64,000 nt of DNA, from NCBI RefSeq assembly GCF_017348835.2, contig NZ_CP072315.1; one strand, 5' to 3'. Position 1 is the stretch's first letter, and each line of letters opens with the position of its first letter. Shown piece after piece: positions 7,025 through 44,772 of this stretch. The notes under the pieces were generated by a model. The model was not told where the DNA came from. It searched no databases and saw nothing but the letters and a program-made list of their open reading frames with translations. The position numbers and the translations under genes are program-made. Origin of the DNA: Escherichia coli. GTDB lineage: Bacteria; Pseudomonadota; Gammaproteobacteria; Enterobacterales; Enterobacteriaceae.

Positions 7025-8083
7025 ATGTCTAATGCCGCTATGAAGTTAAATGAAACATCTTCTGATGCTTATGAAAAATTAGAAGCTCTTCTTTCCCCGG
7101 ATGTTATAAAGTTAAAACATTATGTGGATAAAGGTGAGTATCTTTTAGTTCTAGCAAAGGACCTTTTTGGTATTCCAGAAATGGATCCAAAGATGGCTGT
7201 GCCTGTTTTCAAAACTAAAACCTCGTATCGAGCTCCGCTGAACAAAGACTACATACCAAATCCCCGAATACTTGAACAAGTGGTTAAACTGCTTATCAGT
7301 CCGGATATAGATTTAAGTGTGTGTCTTAAAGGTGAGTCCGGTTCTGGCAAGACTGAAATGGTAATGTACATTAGCCACATGATGAATTGGCCGCTGACAA
7401 TTAAGCAGATCAACAGCAATATTCGAGTTGATGAGCTTGAAGGTGAGCGCAGTCTTAATGGTGGTAATACAGGTTTTGTACACAGCGATTTGGTAACGGG
7501 ATTTCGTAATGGTCACCTCATTCTTCTGGATGAAGTGGACAAAATCGATCCTGATACGGCAGCAAAACTTCACATGCCCATTGAACGTAAGCCCTGGTCA
7601 CTCAGTGCTAATGGTGGTGAGGTTATAACTGCTAATGGCTACACGCGATTTATTGGTACTGCAAACACAAACATGAGTGGAGGCGCTCGCCGGTTCGTTT
7701 CTTCTCAACGTCAAGATGCAGCTTTTATAAAGCGGTTCTTGATAGTTGAAATGGAGAAGCCCGACAAAGTTGCTTTAACCAATGTGCTTACTAAACGATA
7801 TAGCTCTTTGCCTTTTCAGGTCATTGAGAAGTTCGTAAGAGTAGCGATTGCAGTAAATGACTCTGGTACAGAAGACAGTGTGATGGATATTCGTCAATTA
7901 GTAGCTTGGGTTGGCACGTCGATGACGTTAAAAACCTTTAGTCTTCTTGACACTTTCAAAATAGCTTTTGCTTCTGCTTTACCTTTACATGTGGTCGATC
8001 TTGTTCTTCAAGCTATAGATCTTTCTCTTGGCGAAGACAAGGATAAATCGCTGGAGTATTTCACAGCAAAAAAGTCGAGTTAG
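7025..8083 (+). CDS. AAA+ ATPase, MoxR/CobS-like
   Basis: Walker A GESGSGKT, Walker B HLILLDEVDK; size (~350 aa) matches CobS/MoxR-type ATPases. Confidence 0.75.
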   Translation: MSNAAMKLNETSSDAYEKLEALLSPDVIKLKHYVDKGEYLLVLAKDLFGIPEMDPKMAVPVFKTKTSYRAPLNKDYIPNPRILEQVVKLLISPDIDLSVCLKGESGSGKTEMVMYISHMMNWPLTIKQINSNIRVDELEGERSLNGGNTGFVHSDLVTGFRNGHLILLDEVDKIDPDTAAKLHMPIERKPWSLSANGGEVITANGYTRFIGTANTNMSGGARRFVSSQRQDAAFIKRFLIVEMEKPDKVALTNVLTKRYSSLPFQVIEKFVRVAIAVNDSGTEDSVMDIRQLVAWVGTSMTLKTFSLLDTFKIAFASALPLHVVDLVLQAIDLSLGEDKDKSLEYFTAKKSS

Positions 8084-8418
8084 ATGGGATTTGTTATGAA
8101 ACCTCTGATATTTGTATCTCAGAGTTATCCCATCTTGAATTTAGTGCGTTTTTAAGTACGGATGGTGCTGCTACCATTGCTATAGCAAAAAACGGAACTA
8201 ATTTTACTGGACTTATGCAACTGAATAACGACTATTCTTTATTGTTTTATCATGATGGTAAAATAAATATGGAAGGTCTGATTAAACAAATGGAATTAAA
8301 AGGTTATATGTATCAGGGAGCAATGGGCAATGATGATGTTGTTGCTGAGTTTCCCGGTATTCTTTTAATTTCACCAGAGAAGCTTTAATATCAACCCTAT
8401 CGGGAAATCTTTCCCGTT

Positions 8419-8441
8419 GGGGAGGGTTTCCCCTTTTTTTT
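8419..8441 (+). terminator. Intergenic hairpin + U-tract directly upstream of an RBS
   Basis: GGGGA-gggtt-TCCCC followed by an 8-T run, then GGAG and ATG at 8452; an additional CGGGAAA/TTTCCCG hairpin at 8401-8416. Confidence 0.5.
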
Positions 8442-8451
8442 GGAGAAACCC

Positions 8452-9579
8452 ATGACTTTAAATACTTCAATGCTTAACAAAGTATCTGCAAAACAAATCT
8501 CTGAGAATTTTGCAAAATCATATCCAGATTTACTGGAAGGTGCAGTTATAACAAAAATTGAAATAAGTGGCTGTCAAGGATCGCGTCGAACCGATAAAAT
8601 CGATTTGTCTTATGATGGAGATGATATTACGGATCAAAAAAGCGTATCTAAAAGCGAAGTACGCTGGATTGACATAAAAGCCCTTAGCTTCAAAAGTACG
8701 ATTACCAGCAGAATATCAACTCTTTGCTCACGCTTGTGCATCCGCTATAGCAATATGTGGATTTTACCAGTATCCAGTATGGAAGAGTTTCTGGAAGGGG
8801 CCCAAGAGATTGAACGAGAGTTTCAGGCAGGTATTCAAAACGTTGTAGACAATTATGAGATGCATATTGAGGCTGAAAAAAATAGAAGCCCAAGAATGTC
8901 TTCTTTGATTGATCAGTTGAAATTAACTAAAGATGATTTCATAAAATCCTTTAGATTTAATATTGCTCACTTTATTCCTTTTACGCCTATTAGCGTTGAA
9001 GGTGATGAAACCCAGGACTACTATCAGGAACAATTGATAACAGATCTGGCAGAAGAAGCAATGAAGGTTTATGAAAAAATTAGCAAAAATAACAATTTGC
9101 GCTCAAGTACTATTGACCGACTGAAGCAAATGCAAAATAAGATCATTAGCTTCATGTTTATACATAAAGAGGCGGCAGTACTTGCAGAAGCTATAAAACA
9201 CATAATGAATAATTTACCTAAAGGTGCCATTTCTGAACCTCGCGACGTTGCGGTGTTACAGCAGTGGTTTTATTTCATGAGTGATGCTTCAATGTTAAAG
9301 CGTATTATTTCAGGAGAGCAAAAGGTTACTGACTGGTTGGAATCTATTACCAGATCATTTAATCAAAGCTCACAAACAGAACCGAACGCGCTACAGAACA
9401 CAGGTATTGAAGCTATTTTAGATTCAACAAATGTGTTCCAGGTTGAACCTGTCGTAGAGAACGATATAAATAACAGCACGTTTTCAAACACTGATCCTGT
9501 AGCTGAACCTGAGAAATCAGTTTCGCAACAGGAAGACAATGTTGAAAATGGTTTTGATATCGAGCTCAAAGGCTGGTAA
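8452..9579 (+). CDS. Hypothetical protein (375 aa)
   Basis: Track ORF starts at TTG 8440; ATG at 8452 has a GGAG RBS. No motif recognised. Confidence 0.5.
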   Translation: MTLNTSMLNKVSAKQISENFAKSYPDLLEGAVITKIEISGCQGSRRTDKIDLSYDGDDITDQKSVSKSEVRWIDIKALSFKSTITSRISTLCSRLCIRYSNMWILPVSSMEEFLEGAQEIEREFQAGIQNVVDNYEMHIEAEKNRSPRMSSLIDQLKLTKDDFIKSFRFNIAHFIPFTPISVEGDETQDYYQEQLITDLAEEAMKVYEKISKNNNLRSSTIDRLKQMQNKIISFMFIHKEAAVLAEAIKHIMNNLPKGAISEPRDVAVLQQWFYFMSDASMLKRIISGEQKVTDWLESITRSFNQSSQTEPNALQNTGIEAILDSTNVFQVEPVVENDINNSTFSNTDPVAEPEKSVSQQEDNVENGFDIELKGW

Positions 9580-9599
9580 CTGTTTGCTTTATTAAAAAC

Positions 9600-9641
9600 C
9601 CCAGATGGGTACTTCACCATCTGGGTGAGTACCCCTTTTTT
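9600..9641 (+). terminator. Intergenic hairpin + U-tract
   Basis: CCCAGATGG-(8 nt)-CCATCTGGG stem, then ACCCC and TTTTTT, 16 nt before the ATG at 9657. Confidence 0.55.
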
Positions 9642-9656
9642 ATAAAGAGGTATTCT

Positions 9657-11669
9657 ATGAAATTAGATCTTAAATCATCACCGCGCCATATTAAGCGTTT
9701 ACAGAATATAGCAAAAGTCATTAGCGGCTTAGGCGATGTAAGAGTTGTAATAGACGACAATACCAAAGGACCGTATTTTGATCCTGTAAATAAAGTTTGT
9801 GTTTTACCAAACGGCGATTATAGCGATGATGACTTTGTCAGTCTGATTGAAGGTTTTACCTGTCATGAAGCTGGTCATGGTCGCTATACCGACAGCGAGG
9901 TTTACAGTGACGCCTTTAATAGTGTTCTCAAGTCATCTGAAGGGTTTACACGCTTCGATGACGGAATGAATGCAGAGTTTGAGAGCCTCGCTGAGAAACG
10001 TAAAGCTTATAGCAGGGCAAAACGTCTTACCGGGCTTATAAATCTGTTCGATGATGTACAGATGGAAGAGAAGGTTGGTAACGATTATCCGGATGCAAAG
10101 CGGCGGCTTGCAGCCACTTACGCACTGATGGTTAAAGCCGGAAGGATGACTCCTGATATATCTTCTCGTCCGGAAAATCCTGTCCTATTTATTGAGTGGT
10201 ATCTGCTTAACTCATTGCGAGTAAAAGTCCTTCAGCAGGCAGGTCACAAAGAAACACTCGATCCGTTTTTTGACTATGCCCAAAAGATACTTTCTCCAGT
10301 AATTTCTGATGTTGAGGAAATTTTTCATGATGCTCTTGGTTGTGAAAATACTCAGGGCTGTGAATCCCTTGCTCGTAAGACCCTGGCTCTTTTAGAGAGA
10401 CTGCGGGATGAGGCAAGGGAACAACAGCAGCAGACAGAGCAGGAGGAGCAGGAGGCATATGATGAATCCGAGACCGATACCGATACCGATACCGAATCAG
10501 AAGATAAATCGCTTGAGTCGACTGATAGTCGTGAGGATGATTCTGAGGACGATAGTGAAGGTCAGGCAGATACTTCCGATAACTCTGATCTTGCTCAAGA
10601 GGGATGTTCTGAGCCTTCAGAACTTGCTGAAGATAACGAGGGAAATAATGAACCCACCGGTGGCAATCCCACAGGTGATAACATTATTGAAGACGATACT
10701 GATGCGATTAACCCTTCCGAGAGTGAATCAGATGAAGCCAGTTCGACTAACGTTGAAGATGAAAGTAACTTTTCATCGGCTCAATGGGAGATACTGGCAG
10801 ATTTGTTGGATGCCTTTCTTGGCAGTGATGAGGATAGCGAAGATTATCACGATGCTTTGGCTAAAGAGATTGAAGGTATTGCATCAAAAGTATCCGATGA
10901 CGTGAAAGCCGAATTCGGTGCTTCTGAATGGGATATCCCTGATCTCCTTATCGATTTGAATGTTTACAATGAGGCTTTGTCTCTGAGTCATTCAATCGGT
11001 AGCGACTTGTCTGTTTTACAGCAGGTTAAAATGCGTGGCCGAAACAAAACTCATGAGCGTGGAATTACCTTCGATGGAAATCGATTAATTCTGTCACCAA
11101 TGGGAGTTCGTGATGTCTTCAGAGCTCAAAGCGAATCTAAAAATAGAGGGCATGTTGGCCTCGTATTAGTTCGTGATATTTCAGCGTCAATGGCTAATGA
11201 TGAAAGATATATTCATGCCATTAAGTCAGATCTTGCTTTATCGATGGCCGCTGAAAGTTTGTCAAAAATGCATGTCTCCAATATAGTCTTTCCCTTCAAG
11301 GAAAGTGAATTTGAGATTATCAAAACGTTTGATCAAAGCGTTGAGGAATCTCTATCGAAATTCACTCTTGGATGTAAGGGTTATTATACCCCTACGGGAT
11401 CGGCTTTAATGGCAGCTGTTGATCTGTTACTTGACAGCCAATTCGATAGGAAAATAATTTTTCTTATAACTGATGGTTATCCGAATAAATCGGAATTTAC
11501 TATCGGCGAAGTTATGGAAAAGGCTAAATGTAATGGAATAGAAATCGTTGGTGTTGGTATTAAGACTGATGAAATAATTGGTTTTGAAACGGACACTTTC
11601 GTAACAGTTGATGATACTTCTTTATTGTCTATTGAAGTCAGTAAGCTAGTTCATCAAATACTTTCTTAA
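9657..11669 (+). CDS. vWA-domain protein, CobT-like, with acidic linker and N-terminal HExxH motif
   Basis: C-terminal vWA with MIDAS DISAS and ITDG; central highly acidic D/E/S/T-rich segment; HEAGH at residues 70-74. Architecture resembles CobT, the usual partner of CobS-like ATPases. Confidence 0.7.
   Translation: MKLDLKSSPRHIKRLQNIAKVISGLGDVRVVIDDNTKGPYFDPVNKVCVLPNGDYSDDDFVSLIEGFTCHEAGHGRYTDSEVYSDAFNSVLKSSEGFTRFDDGMNAEFESLAEKRKAYSRAKRLTGLINLFDDVQMEEKVGNDYPDAKRRLAATYALMVKAGRMTPDISSRPENPVLFIEWYLLNSLRVKVLQQAGHKETLDPFFDYAQKILSPVISDVEEIFHDALGCENTQGCESLARKTLALLERLRDEAREQQQQTEQEEQEAYDESETDTDTDTESEDKSLESTDSREDDSEDDSEGQADTSDNSDLAQEGCSEPSELAEDNEGNNEPTGGNPTGDNIIEDDTDAINPSESESDEASSTNVEDESNFSSAQWEILADLLDAFLGSDEDSEDYHDALAKEIEGIASKVSDDVKAEFGASEWDIPDLLIDLNVYNEALSLSHSIGSDLSVLQQVKMRGRNKTHERGITFDGNRLILSPMGVRDVFRAQSESKNRGHVGLVLVRDISASMANDERYIHAIKSDLALSMAAESLSKMHVSNIVFPFKESEFEIIKTFDQSVEESLSKFTLGCKGYYTPTGSALMAAVDLLLDSQFDRKIIFLITDGYPNKSEFTIGEVMEKAKCNGIEIVGVGIKTDEIIGFETDTFVTVDDTSLLSIEVSKLVHQILS
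10473..10493 (+). repeat. In-frame hexanucleotide tandem repeat (ACCGAT) x3.5 encoding TDTDTDT
   Basis: accgataccgataccgatacc read directly in the acidic linker of the vWA gene. Confidence 0.6.
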
Positions 11670-11685
11670 TAAACTCTACCCAATC

Positions 11686-11712
11686 GGGGCAAAAGGCCCC
11701 GGTGGGTCTTTT
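11686..11712 (+). terminator. Intergenic hairpin + U-tract
   Basis: GGGGC-aaaag-GCCCC then GGTGGGTCTTTTT, downstream of the 11669 stop. Confidence 0.5.
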
Positions 11713-11740
11713 TGCTCCATGAAGGAATAAGGAGCAAAAT

Positions 11741-11962
11741 ATGACTCAGATAAAAACTTACCGTGTAGAACATGAAAAAGTCGGTGCGATGCATAAAGTC
11801 CGTATTTTCGGACGTGTTGGTGAAGTTATAAGCAATGATAGCCCTCAGGAAAGAATCTTCCGCGAAGTCACTATAGCGGAGGGTAATAGCCAGCAGGCTG
11901 CGTTACTTGTAGATAACTACATACAGTGTCTTGAGAATAATGGCTTCACGACTGAAGCATAA
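11741..11962 (+). CDS. Hypothetical small protein (73 aa)
   Basis: ORF with AAGGAG-like RBS (aataaggagcaaaatATG) and its own downstream terminator. Confidence 0.45.
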   Translation: MTQIKTYRVEHEKVGAMHKVRIFGRVGEVISNDSPQERIFREVTIAEGNSQQAALLVDNYIQCLENNGFTTEA

Positions 11963-11967
11963 ATGTT

Positions 11968-11991
11968 GAGGGCCCCCGGGCCCTCTTTCTT
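11968..11991 (+). terminator. Intrinsic terminator
   Basis: GAGGGCCC-cc-GGGCCCTC perfect stem followed by TTTCTT. Confidence 0.55.
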
Positions 11992-12075
11992 AAATTCTGC
12001 GTTGTGGGTTTCTCCCTGTCTTCTGCACCGCAGAAGGCATTGAGAAACTCACAATGCCAGATAAGAGAGATCATC

Positions 12076-13308
12076 ATGACTTATGCATCCCCGGCTCTTC
12101 GTCGTAATCCACAGGAAGTATCTGAACACTTTATTAAACTCGTTCATGCTCGAATTGCTGAAGTGTCTGGCTGGAAGTATATATTCGAAAGAATACCTGC
12201 TTTCAAAGACGCTTGTGCAAAAGCCCCGAGCCAGGTTCCTTGCCCGTTTACTGGCGCAGGGAAATCGAAGTTTCGTTTCCGACAAAAAGACCTTTATACC
12301 GGATGTGCGATCCATAATGACTTTCCGGTAAATGAGTTTTGCGACGGAATTGATGTTCTGGCGAAATATTATGAATTAAGTAAAACGCAGACTTGCAAAA
12401 AGATTCTCTCAGATTTTTTCGGGATGGATCTGCATGCTCCGTTAACTGACGCCGACATTGAAAATGAACGACGCTATAAATCAGCAGTTCGTGCCACAGA
12501 AACTCTTGACCGAGAGGAAGTGGCAAAGCGAATGCGAAAACTTGATGTGATGTATCACTATACCGGTGAAATCAAGCCTAATACTCCTGTTGCTTTGTAC
12601 CTCCGTAATCGTGGGATCTCCCGCTTACTGAGTCACTTACCAAAGGATTTAGGCTTTAATAACCGGATCTACTATTGGGATAAAGATAAGCAGAAATCGA
12701 TTATCTATCCGGGAATGATTGCGATCTATCGTGACACCCGAGGTCGGCCTCTGACTATTCATAGAACATACGTAGACAAAAATGGTGATAAGGCACCTGT
12801 AGAAAATCCAAAGCTGATGATGAAGCCTCCTGCCGATATGACAGGTGGCTCAATTCAGTTGTTTGACCCTCACTATGATTCAGGTAGTTCGACCTGGACA
12901 CTGGGAGTGGCTGAAGGGATCGAGAACGCGCTTTCTGTTGTAGAAGCGACTTCAACACCATGCTGGGCAGCCAGCTCCGCATGGTGCCTTGAAAACGTTA
13001 CTGTTCCTGATTTTTTACTGCCTCCGCCGGATGTAAAATCTATAAACTTTTATATCTGGGCGGATAAGGATATTGCTAACTCACAAGGCACTCGTGCCGG
13101 TATTGAAGCTGCTCAGCGACTTCAAAGCCGCATGGTTGAGTTTTTGGCTAAACGATATCCCGCATCAAAGCTGACAATTGAAGTCTTCGAACCAGCACAA
13201 GATATTCCTGATGGGAAAAAGGGTATCGACTGGAACGATGTTCTCCAGTTAACAGGGCAGGATGGATTCCCGATTCACTGGGCTCCTGAATGTCTTAATC
13301 AGCTGTAA
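12076..13308 (+). CDS. Toprim-domain DNA primase-like protein
   Basis: Toprim signature (conserved Glu in LGVAEGIENALS, DxD in YIWADKD), N-terminal Cys cluster (VPCPFTG, CAIHNDF) suggesting a zinc-binding region. ATG at 12076 has an AAGAGAGA RBS; track start 12004 is GTG without RBS. Confidence 0.55.
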   Translation: MTYASPALRRNPQEVSEHFIKLVHARIAEVSGWKYIFERIPAFKDACAKAPSQVPCPFTGAGKSKFRFRQKDLYTGCAIHNDFPVNEFCDGIDVLAKYYELSKTQTCKKILSDFFGMDLHAPLTDADIENERRYKSAVRATETLDREEVAKRMRKLDVMYHYTGEIKPNTPVALYLRNRGISRLLSHLPKDLGFNNRIYYWDKDKQKSIIYPGMIAIYRDTRGRPLTIHRTYVDKNGDKAPVENPKLMMKPPADMTGGSIQLFDPHYDSGSSTWTLGVAEGIENALSVVEATSTPCWAASSAWCLENVTVPDFLLPPPDVKSINFYIWADKDIANSQGTRAGIEAAQRLQSRMVEFLAKRYPASKLTIEVFEPAQDIPDGKKGIDWNDVLQLTGQDGFPIHWAPECLNQL

Positions 13309-40865: not shown

Positions 40866-41447
40866 ATGGTTTCATTAAGTAAGAACCAGACGGTATCACT
40901 CAGCAAAGAATCTTCAGCATTAAGCCAGCTTCAATTCGGTCTCGGTTGGGATCCGGTTAAGAAAAAAGGTCTTCTTGGAGGATTGTTTGGAGGCAACGAC
41001 TCAATCGATCTCGATGCTGGCTGCGTATTAATGGACAGCACCGGTAAAACAATTGACACCATCTGGTTCCGCAAACTGGAATCCACCTGCGGCGCTGTTG
41101 TGCACAGTGGCGATAACCTGACCGGTGAGGGTGACGGTGACGATGAGGTGATTAAGGTCAACCTCTCCCGACTGCCTGCAAACGTTGAATACCTGGCGTT
41201 TACGGTAAACAGCTTCCGTGGTCAGTCGTTCAATGACGTCGAAAACGCGTTCTGCCGCGTTGTCGATCAAACCGGCAAAGAGCTGGCTCGCTACAAGCTG
41301 ACTGAGCAGGGCTCACATACCGGGATCGTTATTTCTTCGCTGCGCCGTAATAACGGCAACTGGGACTTTACCGCCCTTGGCCATGCCTGTCGCGGCCGCA
41401 CAATTGACGATATGCACTCCGATATCGTTTCAGCGGTTATTCGCTAA
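40866..41447 (+). CDS. terZ: Tellurite resistance protein TerZ (TerD family)
   Basis: MVSLSKNQTVSLSK..., [20 protein letters not shown]; first gene of terZABCDEF. Confidence 0.85.
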   Translation: MVSLSKNQTVSLSKESSALSQLQFGLGWDPVKKKGLLGGLFGGNDSIDLDAGCVLMDSTGKTIDTIWFRKLESTCGAVVHSGDNLTGEGDGDDEVIKVNLSRLPANVEYLAFTVNSFRGQSFNDVENAFCRVVDQTGKELARYKLTEQGSHTGIVISSLRRNNGNWDFTALGHACRGRTIDDMHSDIVSAVIR

Positions 41448-44193: not shown

Positions 44194-44772
44194 ATGAGTG
44201 TTTCTCTTTCCAAAGGCGGGAACGTCTCCCTGAGTAAAGCAGCTCCGTCAATGAAAAACGTCCTGGTGGGCCTTGGCTGGGATGCGCGTTCAACAGACGG
44301 TCAGGACTTTGACCTGGATGCTTCAGCATTCCTGCTGGCCGCAAATGGCAAAGTGCGCGGCGATTCAGATTTCATCTTCTATAACAACCTGACGTCATCT
44401 GACGGTTCCGTAACCCATACCGGTGATAACCGTACCGGTGAAGGTGATGGTGATGATGAATCGCTGAAAATTAAACTGGACGCCGTCCCGTCTGATGTTG
44501 ACAAGATCATCTTCGTTGTCACTATCCATGATGCTCAGGCTCGTCGCCAGAGCTTTGGTCAGGTATCCGGTGCGTTTATTCGCCTGGTCAATGACGATAA
44601 CCAGACTGAAGTCGCTCGCTACGATCTGACCGAAGATGCGTCCACTGAGACTGCCATGCTGTTCGGCGAGCTGTATCGCCACAATGGTGAGTGGAAATTC
44701 CGCGCAGTGGGCCAGGGTTATGCTGGTGGTCTGGCATCTGTATGTGCTCAGTACGGCATTAACGCGTCCTGA
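44194..44772 (+). CDS. terD: Tellurite resistance protein TerD
   Basis: 192 aa, [35 protein letters not shown]. Confidence 0.9.

Follow-up and report, generated by a model that had tools for sequence, protein, structure and literature searches.

Several described systems resemble parts of the locus considered here. CobT combines an M48C-like N-terminal domain, a disordered linker of ~90 residues that has never been resolved by cryo-electron microscopy, and a C-terminal VWA domain with a MIDAS (metal ion-dependent adhesion site), and CobN is gripped between the two CobT domains on a CobS motor (bioRxiv 10.64898/2026.07.21.739949). At the DNA level, the closest counterparts are coding variable-number tandem repeats (VNTRs) of the type used in multiple-locus VNTR analysis (MLVA) and, by mechanism, phase-variable contingency loci. 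The locus itself is a hexanucleotide repeat within a gene for a protein of CobT-like architecture (hereafter the VWA gene), located in a 64,000-nucleotide (nt) stretch of Escherichia coli DNA (NCBI RefSeq assembly GCF_017348835.2, contig NZ_CP072315.1). This stretch, referred to as the window, is IncHI2 plasmid backbone. The repeat tract is very probably a short coding VNTR of an IncHI2 backbone gene, generated by slippage, tolerated as near-neutral and inherited as a lineage marker.

The repeat was read directly from the window. Positions 10473-10493 of the plus strand are ACCGATACCGATACCGATACC, i.e. (ACCGAT)x3.5, and since a codon starts at 10473 the repeat is in frame with the 670-residue open reading frame (ORF) at 9657..11669 (+). 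The encoded peptide is TDTDTDT, running from T273 to T279 within ...AYDESETDTDTDTESEDKS..., as a sequence-only reading of the window had stated. Period-6 identity is perfect as far as 10495 (23 nt), and an imperfect unit, CCGAGA, lies at 10468-10473, directly 5' of the perfect array. Tandem Repeats Finder (TRF) reports the combined interval, 10468-10495, as a period-6 repeat with 4.7 copies and 95% matches.

Among perfect tandem arrays of at least 18 nt and a period of 4-12, the 10473-10495 array is the only one in the window. Runs of equal length appeared in none of 200 dinucleotide shuffles of the window, none of 2000 codon shuffles of the gene and none of 5000 codon shuffles of the linker, and a chance origin of the array is excluded. 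Given the peptide, the choice of ACC for all four Thr codons and GAT for all three Asp codons has a probability of 0.0026 under the codon usage of the gene and 0.0003 under that of the linker. Such codon uniformity means that the units are identical at the DNA level and not at the peptide level alone, and it indicates recent DNA-level duplication. The tract thus consists of near-identical, head-to-tail DNA copies beyond chance, as coding VNTRs do.

In full, what varies is a compound of two repeats, (CCGAGA)n(CCGATA)m, with CCGAA directly behind it. Both sub-tracts vary; in peptide terms, Thr-Glu units (E) are followed by Thr-Asp units (D). The window carries allele (1,3), with (CCGAGA)1(CCGATA)3CCGA at 10468-10495 (+), where relatives carry alternative alleles. 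The sequence-only reading had taken ACCGAT as the variable unit, which captures the variation in m but misses that n varies too.

The VWA gene matched 1,120 PLSDB records at 90-100% identity (at least 95% in every record except one), and the full-gene matches were 2001, 2007, 2013 or 2019 nt long. Alleles were counted with allele-specific queries of 85-103 nt over 10418-10514, a stretch without lineage single-nucleotide polymorphisms (SNPs), and hits were sorted by identity bands. The blastn mode was used, which spans the gap between alleles differing by 12 nt, where megablast gives two pieces of 100% identity, and the identity-band sums closed at 1,117 PLSDB records in each query. The window's allele, (1,3) or EDDD, was carried by 465 of these 1,117 records, and (1,2) or EDD, the allele of the prototype plasmid R478, by 435 plus one further record, the Citrobacter plasmid pD36-1 (L007). 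Next came (3,1) or EEED (117 records) and (2,3) or EEDDD (70), followed by (1,1) or ED (11), (2,2) or EEDD (9), and (3,2) or EEEDD and (3,3) or EEEDDD (4 each). Allele (1,4), EDDDD, was found in none of the PLSDB records. A rank-interpolated estimate of 13-31 plasmids with (2,2) was dropped, the direct count being 9.

One PLSDB record stands outside these allele counts: it has the four-unit length and, within the 97 nt tested, differs further by ~3-4 substitutions. This record may represent a divergent IncHI2-like lineage, comparable to the homologue P0002 (91% protein identity, ED-type tract).

The same allele classes were present among 275 E. coli RefSeq records, of which 188 matched at ≥99%, 46 at 95-99% and 40 at 90-95%. 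A seven-unit allele, (3,4) or EEEDDDD, occurs in a single E. coli RefSeq plasmid and was found nowhere else, bringing the total to nine (n,m) alleles. Across ~1,100 IncHI2 plasmids, ACCGAT copies therefore range from 1 to 4 and the compound tract from 2 to 7 units. The sequence-only reading had proposed that such in-frame units could expand or contract without frameshifting, that this would vary linker length between isolates, and that copy number be compared across related plasmids. The prediction holds: the frame is always kept, every protein is full-length (666-676 residues, or 665 in L007), and an identical copy number in all relatives is ruled out. An exact-pattern scan of genome contigs with a variable gap returned no match, and the TD/TE tract is confined to the IncHI2 clade of the protein family.

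Whole-unit gain and loss is confined to the array. In an alignment of representatives, all indels in the 2-kb gene fall in the hexamer tract, save a 9-nt contraction in L007. That contraction removes one copy (window 10437-10445) of a second tandem repeat, GAGCAGGAG x2.1 (TRF; 10437..10455, +), which encodes EQEEQE; L007 is the sole such case among the 1,117 plasmids. This 9-nt repeat lies 13 nt 5' of the hexamer tract, where the predicted helix preceding the linker has its C-terminal end, and is a putative second, rarer slippage site of the same region. Two further ORFs that overlap here, 10408..10905 (+) and 10207..10458 (-), were assigned no role, as they arise mechanically when a well-conserved gene is read in its other frames.

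The nine alleles form a network of single-unit edges: (1,1)-(1,2)-(1,3)-(2,3)-(3,3)-(3,4), with (2,3)-(2,2) and (3,3)-(3,2)-(3,1) as branches. No point mutation is needed anywhere in this network. The flanks were compared in a 5,984-column alignment around the tract, built from loci picked to represent different alleles. Members of lineage A (the window, L001, L005, L006, L008, L010, L012, L013 and L015) are 0-4 SNPs apart in pairwise comparison over ~6 kb, with nine segregating sites when the tract is left aside, yet the lineage contains six tract alleles. Lineage B (L002, L004, L007 and R478) shows 0-2 SNPs and contains two alleles. Lineages A and B are separated by ~44 SNPs in 6 kb, and their host split fits the division of IncHI2 plasmids into sequence type (ST) 3, in E. 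coli and Salmonella, and ST1, in Enterobacter and including R478 (PMC11058233). A third lineage, C, is an apparent mixture of A-type and B-type SNPs.

L002 (EDD) and L004 (EDDD) have no SNPs between them over ~6 kb but differ in allele. Import of the allele into L004 by recombination appears very unlikely, because L004 retains B-type SNPs on both sides of the tract, 56 nt upstream and 22 nt downstream. Alleles have changed on identical flanking haplotypes, in a sample that was chosen by allele.

These features place the tract beside MLVA-type coding VNTRs, with which it shares identical head-to-tail units, whole-unit alleles, variation confined to the array, allele differences on identical haplotypes and a preserved frame. 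It differs from them in being very short (2-7 units), slow, and located on a conjugative backbone instead of a chromosome. With phase-variable contingency loci it would share repeat slippage as a mechanism. Unlike at those loci, a change in repeat number here can cause neither a frameshift nor an altered promoter spacing, and all alleles are full-length (665-676 residues); the 6-nt unit lies inside the ORF, and expression is not switched by either of these routes. The size of the single-allele classes, up to 465 plasmids, likewise marks the tract as a VNTR that changes slowly, unlike a hypermutable contingency locus, and the sharing of single alleles by 70-465 independent plasmids is indirect evidence against a high switching rate in clonal populations. 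The tract is thus an ordinary in-frame short tandem repeat polymorphism and not a phase-variation switch.

The protein context of the tract was examined in an AlphaFold model built from 25 homologues. The model has a confident N-terminal domain (residues ~6-272) and confident C-terminal helices and VWA domain, with residues 274-370 between them at a predicted local distance difference test (pLDDT) score of ~27-36 and without secondary structure. The N-terminal domain (aa 1-272; 9657..10472, +) has a predicted M48-like zincin fold with an invariant H70-E71-x-x-H74. The putative disordered acidic linker (aa 274-370; 10476..10766, +; pLDDT block means 27-36) is D/E-rich and hypervariable in homologues. 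The C-terminal part (10767..11669, +) comprises a helical extension and a VWA domain whose MIDAS residues, D507-x-S509-x-S511, are invariant, and was identified by Pfam and Foldseek. The only Pfam domain is this C-terminal VWA (PF00092, E 2e-7), and a PDB sequence search gave weak VWA matches only. In Foldseek, the C-terminal domain was best matched by the VWA domain of NorD as bound to NorQ (NorQ-NorD complex; E 1e-7) and by the MIDAS domain of Rea1/MDN1.

The TDTDTDT segment (273-279) opens the predicted disordered linker, directly after a long helix (232-272), and lies within a D/E-rich, K/R-poor stretch at residues ~250-405. The placement of the repeat in an acidic linker by the sequence-only reading is therefore sound, with the refinement that it sits at the N-terminal edge of the predicted disordered part.

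No part of the family is less conserved than the linker, which lies between the conserved RLRDEAKEQQQ and ESNFSxEQW blocks. Linker length appears to be weakly constrained, because the linker spans 111-228 residues across homologues and because, in a Yersinia/Buttiauxella clade (P0043-P0050), it consists of 5-26 QQQD[GSD] units in otherwise similar proteins of 601-722 residues. Several other observations were made in this region. P0041 and P0042 differ in the copy number of a QQQSNDGA-type repeat, P0031 has a 43-residue linker insertion relative to P0030, and the Shewanella homologue P0054 has a linker repeat of ~16 residues of the DSSDSDDANGSDDSEG type. Outside the Yersinia/Buttiauxella clade, linker repeats thus reach 11 or 16 residues, and the tandem peptide repeats seen in these protein sequences differ by clade.

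Under the favoured explanation, the nascent and template strands would occasionally mis-pair during replication, out of register by a single 6-nt unit of the (CCGAGA)n(CCGATA)m tract, and each slip would add or remove one Thr-Glu or Thr-Asp dipeptide. With a unit length divisible by three, and a tract placed where a predicted disordered tether of ~100 residues begins, such changes would leave the reading frame and the folded domains intact. They would be tolerated as near-neutral and passed on as lineage markers, in a gene whose product is likely a CobT-architecture adaptor paired with an AAA_5 ATPase. That the alleles arose by slipped-strand mispairing is suggested by their pattern, and variation in unit number is probably near-neutral: a change of at most 10 residues at the edge of a predicted disordered tether of ~100 residues is unlikely to matter. 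Some points weigh against this explanation. The loci of the flank comparison were chosen by allele, so the contrast between many alleles and few SNPs is ascertainment-biased and yields no mutation rate. In addition, each major allele is stable over tens to hundreds of plasmids, and T<->G substitution could in principle be the source of part of the E/D unit differences.

The substitution argument can be extended to the whole allele set, with T<->G changes converting D to E units and recombination or gene conversion between lineages spreading them, in place of slippage. Alleles (1,3), (2,2) and (3,1) are indeed equal in length, with all their differences at the periodic T/G positions 10478 and 10484, and IncHI2 plasmids are mosaic, as in lineage C, where A-type and B-type SNPs appear to be mixed. 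Seven of the nine alleles, however, differ in length by exact multiples of the unit, which substitutions cannot produce, and the intermediates (2,3), (3,3) and (3,2) have all been found. It is also less likely that T>G changes arose twice independently, at homologous positions of the units, than that an E unit was gained and a D unit lost, because the lineage in question has only 9 SNP sites in ~6 kb. Recombination would have to account for L004 and L002, which differ in the tract only, by an imported patch of <80 nt. Taken together, this origin of the alleles is improbable. An artefact of sequencing or assembly can be given almost no weight: some records do have 1-nt indels elsewhere that resemble assembly errors (e.g. 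L004 at ~9485), but the tract, at no more than 42 nt, is far shorter than any read length, the differences are all exact 6-nt multiples that preserve the frame, and the alleles track the flanking SNPs and recur across independent assemblies (4 to 465 of them) that were produced by different laboratories on different platforms.

A third possibility concerns the fate of the alleles: the length or charge of the tether between the M48-like and VWA domains may modulate an AAA_5-VWA machine, for instance by changing how far it reaches towards an effector, with host-specific alleles being favoured. Alleles are unevenly distributed among hosts, (1,2) being dominant in Enterobacter and the other genera of the R478-like lineage, and (1,3) and the E-expanded alleles in E. 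coli and Salmonella plasmids. This skew, however, matches plasmid lineages that are ~44 SNPs apart in 6 kb and the ST3/ST1 split (PMC11058233), and is therefore explained by descent. Several alleles occur side by side within E. coli alone, the change amounts to at most +/-10 residues in a linker of ~100, and relatives tolerate roughly four-fold differences in linker length, all of which makes adaptive tuning highly improbable. A family-wide version of the idea, in which repeat-driven tether length is a selected property of plasmid-borne AAA_5 / DUF3150 / M48-VWA systems, would draw together the IncHI2 hexamer tract, the 5-26 QQQD[GSD] units of Yersinia/Buttiauxella and the 11- and 16-residue repeats elsewhere. 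It is a speculation with very little likelihood; if true, length would tune the reach or specificity of the adaptor to a variable target, and the IncHI2 alleles would be functional variants and not neutral markers. A near-neutral VNTR remains the favoured explanation.

The designation of the gene as CobT-like, made in the sequence-only reading, stands for the architecture and the adjacent AAA_5 ATPase but not for family membership. According to the model, the plasmid protein has the same domain order as CobT, namely an M48-like N-terminal domain, a long disordered linker, helices, and a VWA domain with MIDAS; as in CobS-CobT, an AAA_5-type ATPase is encoded nearby. This likeness was judged against the text of the preprint cited above, and CobT structures were not among the PDB matches. 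The window protein fails the CobT and cobaltochelatase models: it scores far under the cut-off of TIGR02442 (33 bits against 779), has no match to PF06213 or PF11775, and CobT_C is matched only by the distant homologue P0054. A phage 'CobT' PHROG matches the window protein at E 2e-4 only.

The partner ATPase, which is MoxR/CobS-like (7025..8083, +; Pfam AAA_5, 98 bits), matches phrog_249 'porphyrin biosynthesis', a phage CobS-type family, at E 2.5e-30, but reaches 34 bits against the CobS equivalog cut-off of 558. No cobN gene or cobalamin gene context is annotated in 50 kb, the annotated neighbours being trhN, trhI, DUF3150, a toprim/primase-like gene, and resistance and tellurite genes. The layout differs from CobS-CobT in that a DUF3150 gene (8452..9579, +; Pfam DUF3150, E 2e-23, and RefSeq annotation in identical plasmids) is inserted between the ATPase and VWA genes, with conjugative-transfer and primase-like neighbours. 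'CobT-like' is thus apt for the architecture, but by sequence models the protein lies outside the CobT family.

Pairs of MoxR/AAA_5 ATPases and VWA proteins (NorQ-NorD, CbbQ-CbbO and RavA-ViaA), together with Rea1/Midasin, offer a second comparison, as the locus likewise has an adjacent AAA_5 ATPase and a VWA domain with an intact MIDAS. As far as tested, neither NorD nor ViaA has an M48-like N-terminal domain with an intact HExxH like that of the plasmid protein. Rea1 has a long D/E-rich segment ahead of its MIDAS domain.

The plasmids that carry the gene are large (~150-480 kb) and mostly conjugative, come from Escherichia, Salmonella, Enterobacter, Klebsiella and Citrobacter, and include R478; every record that was opened is typed as IncHI2A / MOBH / MPF_F. 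The VWA gene belongs to a conserved string of genes just downstream of trhN and trhI, in the order AAA_5 ATPase (7025-8083), small ORF, DUF3150 (8452-9579), VWA protein (9657-11669), small ORF and toprim/DUF7146 primase-like gene. The conserved AAA_5 / DUF3150 / M48-VWA / primase-like module spans 7025-13308 of the window, directly downstream of trhN-trhI. PADLOC gave no defence-system match for the module. The literature on it is nearly nil, DUF3150 being mentioned in a single preprint and nothing on DUF3150 bearing on the locus, and literature searches found no published description of the locus, including as a typing locus.

In two plasmids the VWA gene is not intact: it is interrupted by IS903B in the E. 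coli plasmid NZ_CP119735.1 (H1), and only its last 19% is left in the Enterobacter plasmid NZ_CP042489.1 (H60). Plasmids can therefore persist without the gene, at least in some hosts. L004 (OW969785.1, an Enterobacter plasmid) differs from all others in a 10-nt insertion at ~7503 and a 1-nt deletion at ~9485 (window-equivalent positions). The deletion lies inside the DUF3150 gene, where the annotated gene is shortened, and both changes are possibly assembly errors and not biology.

TRF also listed two further period-6 repeats in the window, at 41123-41151 (CGGTGA x5) and 44437-44459 (GGTGAT x3.8). They lie within two paralogous ORFs of ~192 residues (40866-41447 and 44194-44772) that encode ...TGEGDGDDE..., a sequence that resembles the conserved acidic motif of TerD-family proteins. 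As VNTRs comparable to the hexamer tract they were set aside, since they look like the coding of a conserved motif.

In summary, the biological consequence of the variation is probably close to nil, a few Thr-Asp or Thr-Glu dipeptides more or fewer in a tether of ~100 residues. What has been gained is a better description of a strongly conserved IncHI2 backbone module, in which an AAA_5 ATPase and DUF3150 accompany an adaptor of CobT architecture (M48-like/linker/VWA). In practical terms the gain is modest but real, in the form of a cheap nine-allele marker that can be read by polymerase chain reaction or from short reads. The two loci of the IncHI2 plasmid double locus sequence typing (pDLST) scheme are named in the literature as smr0018 and smr0199, and the VWA gene, from its position in R478 (~44 kb), appears to be neither. 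The tract subdivides the IncHI2 resistance plasmids, a group of global importance that includes carriers of mcr-1, mcr-9 and blaCTX-M, even where the plasmids are nearly SNP-identical across 6 kb, and could thus add resolution to the two-locus scheme.

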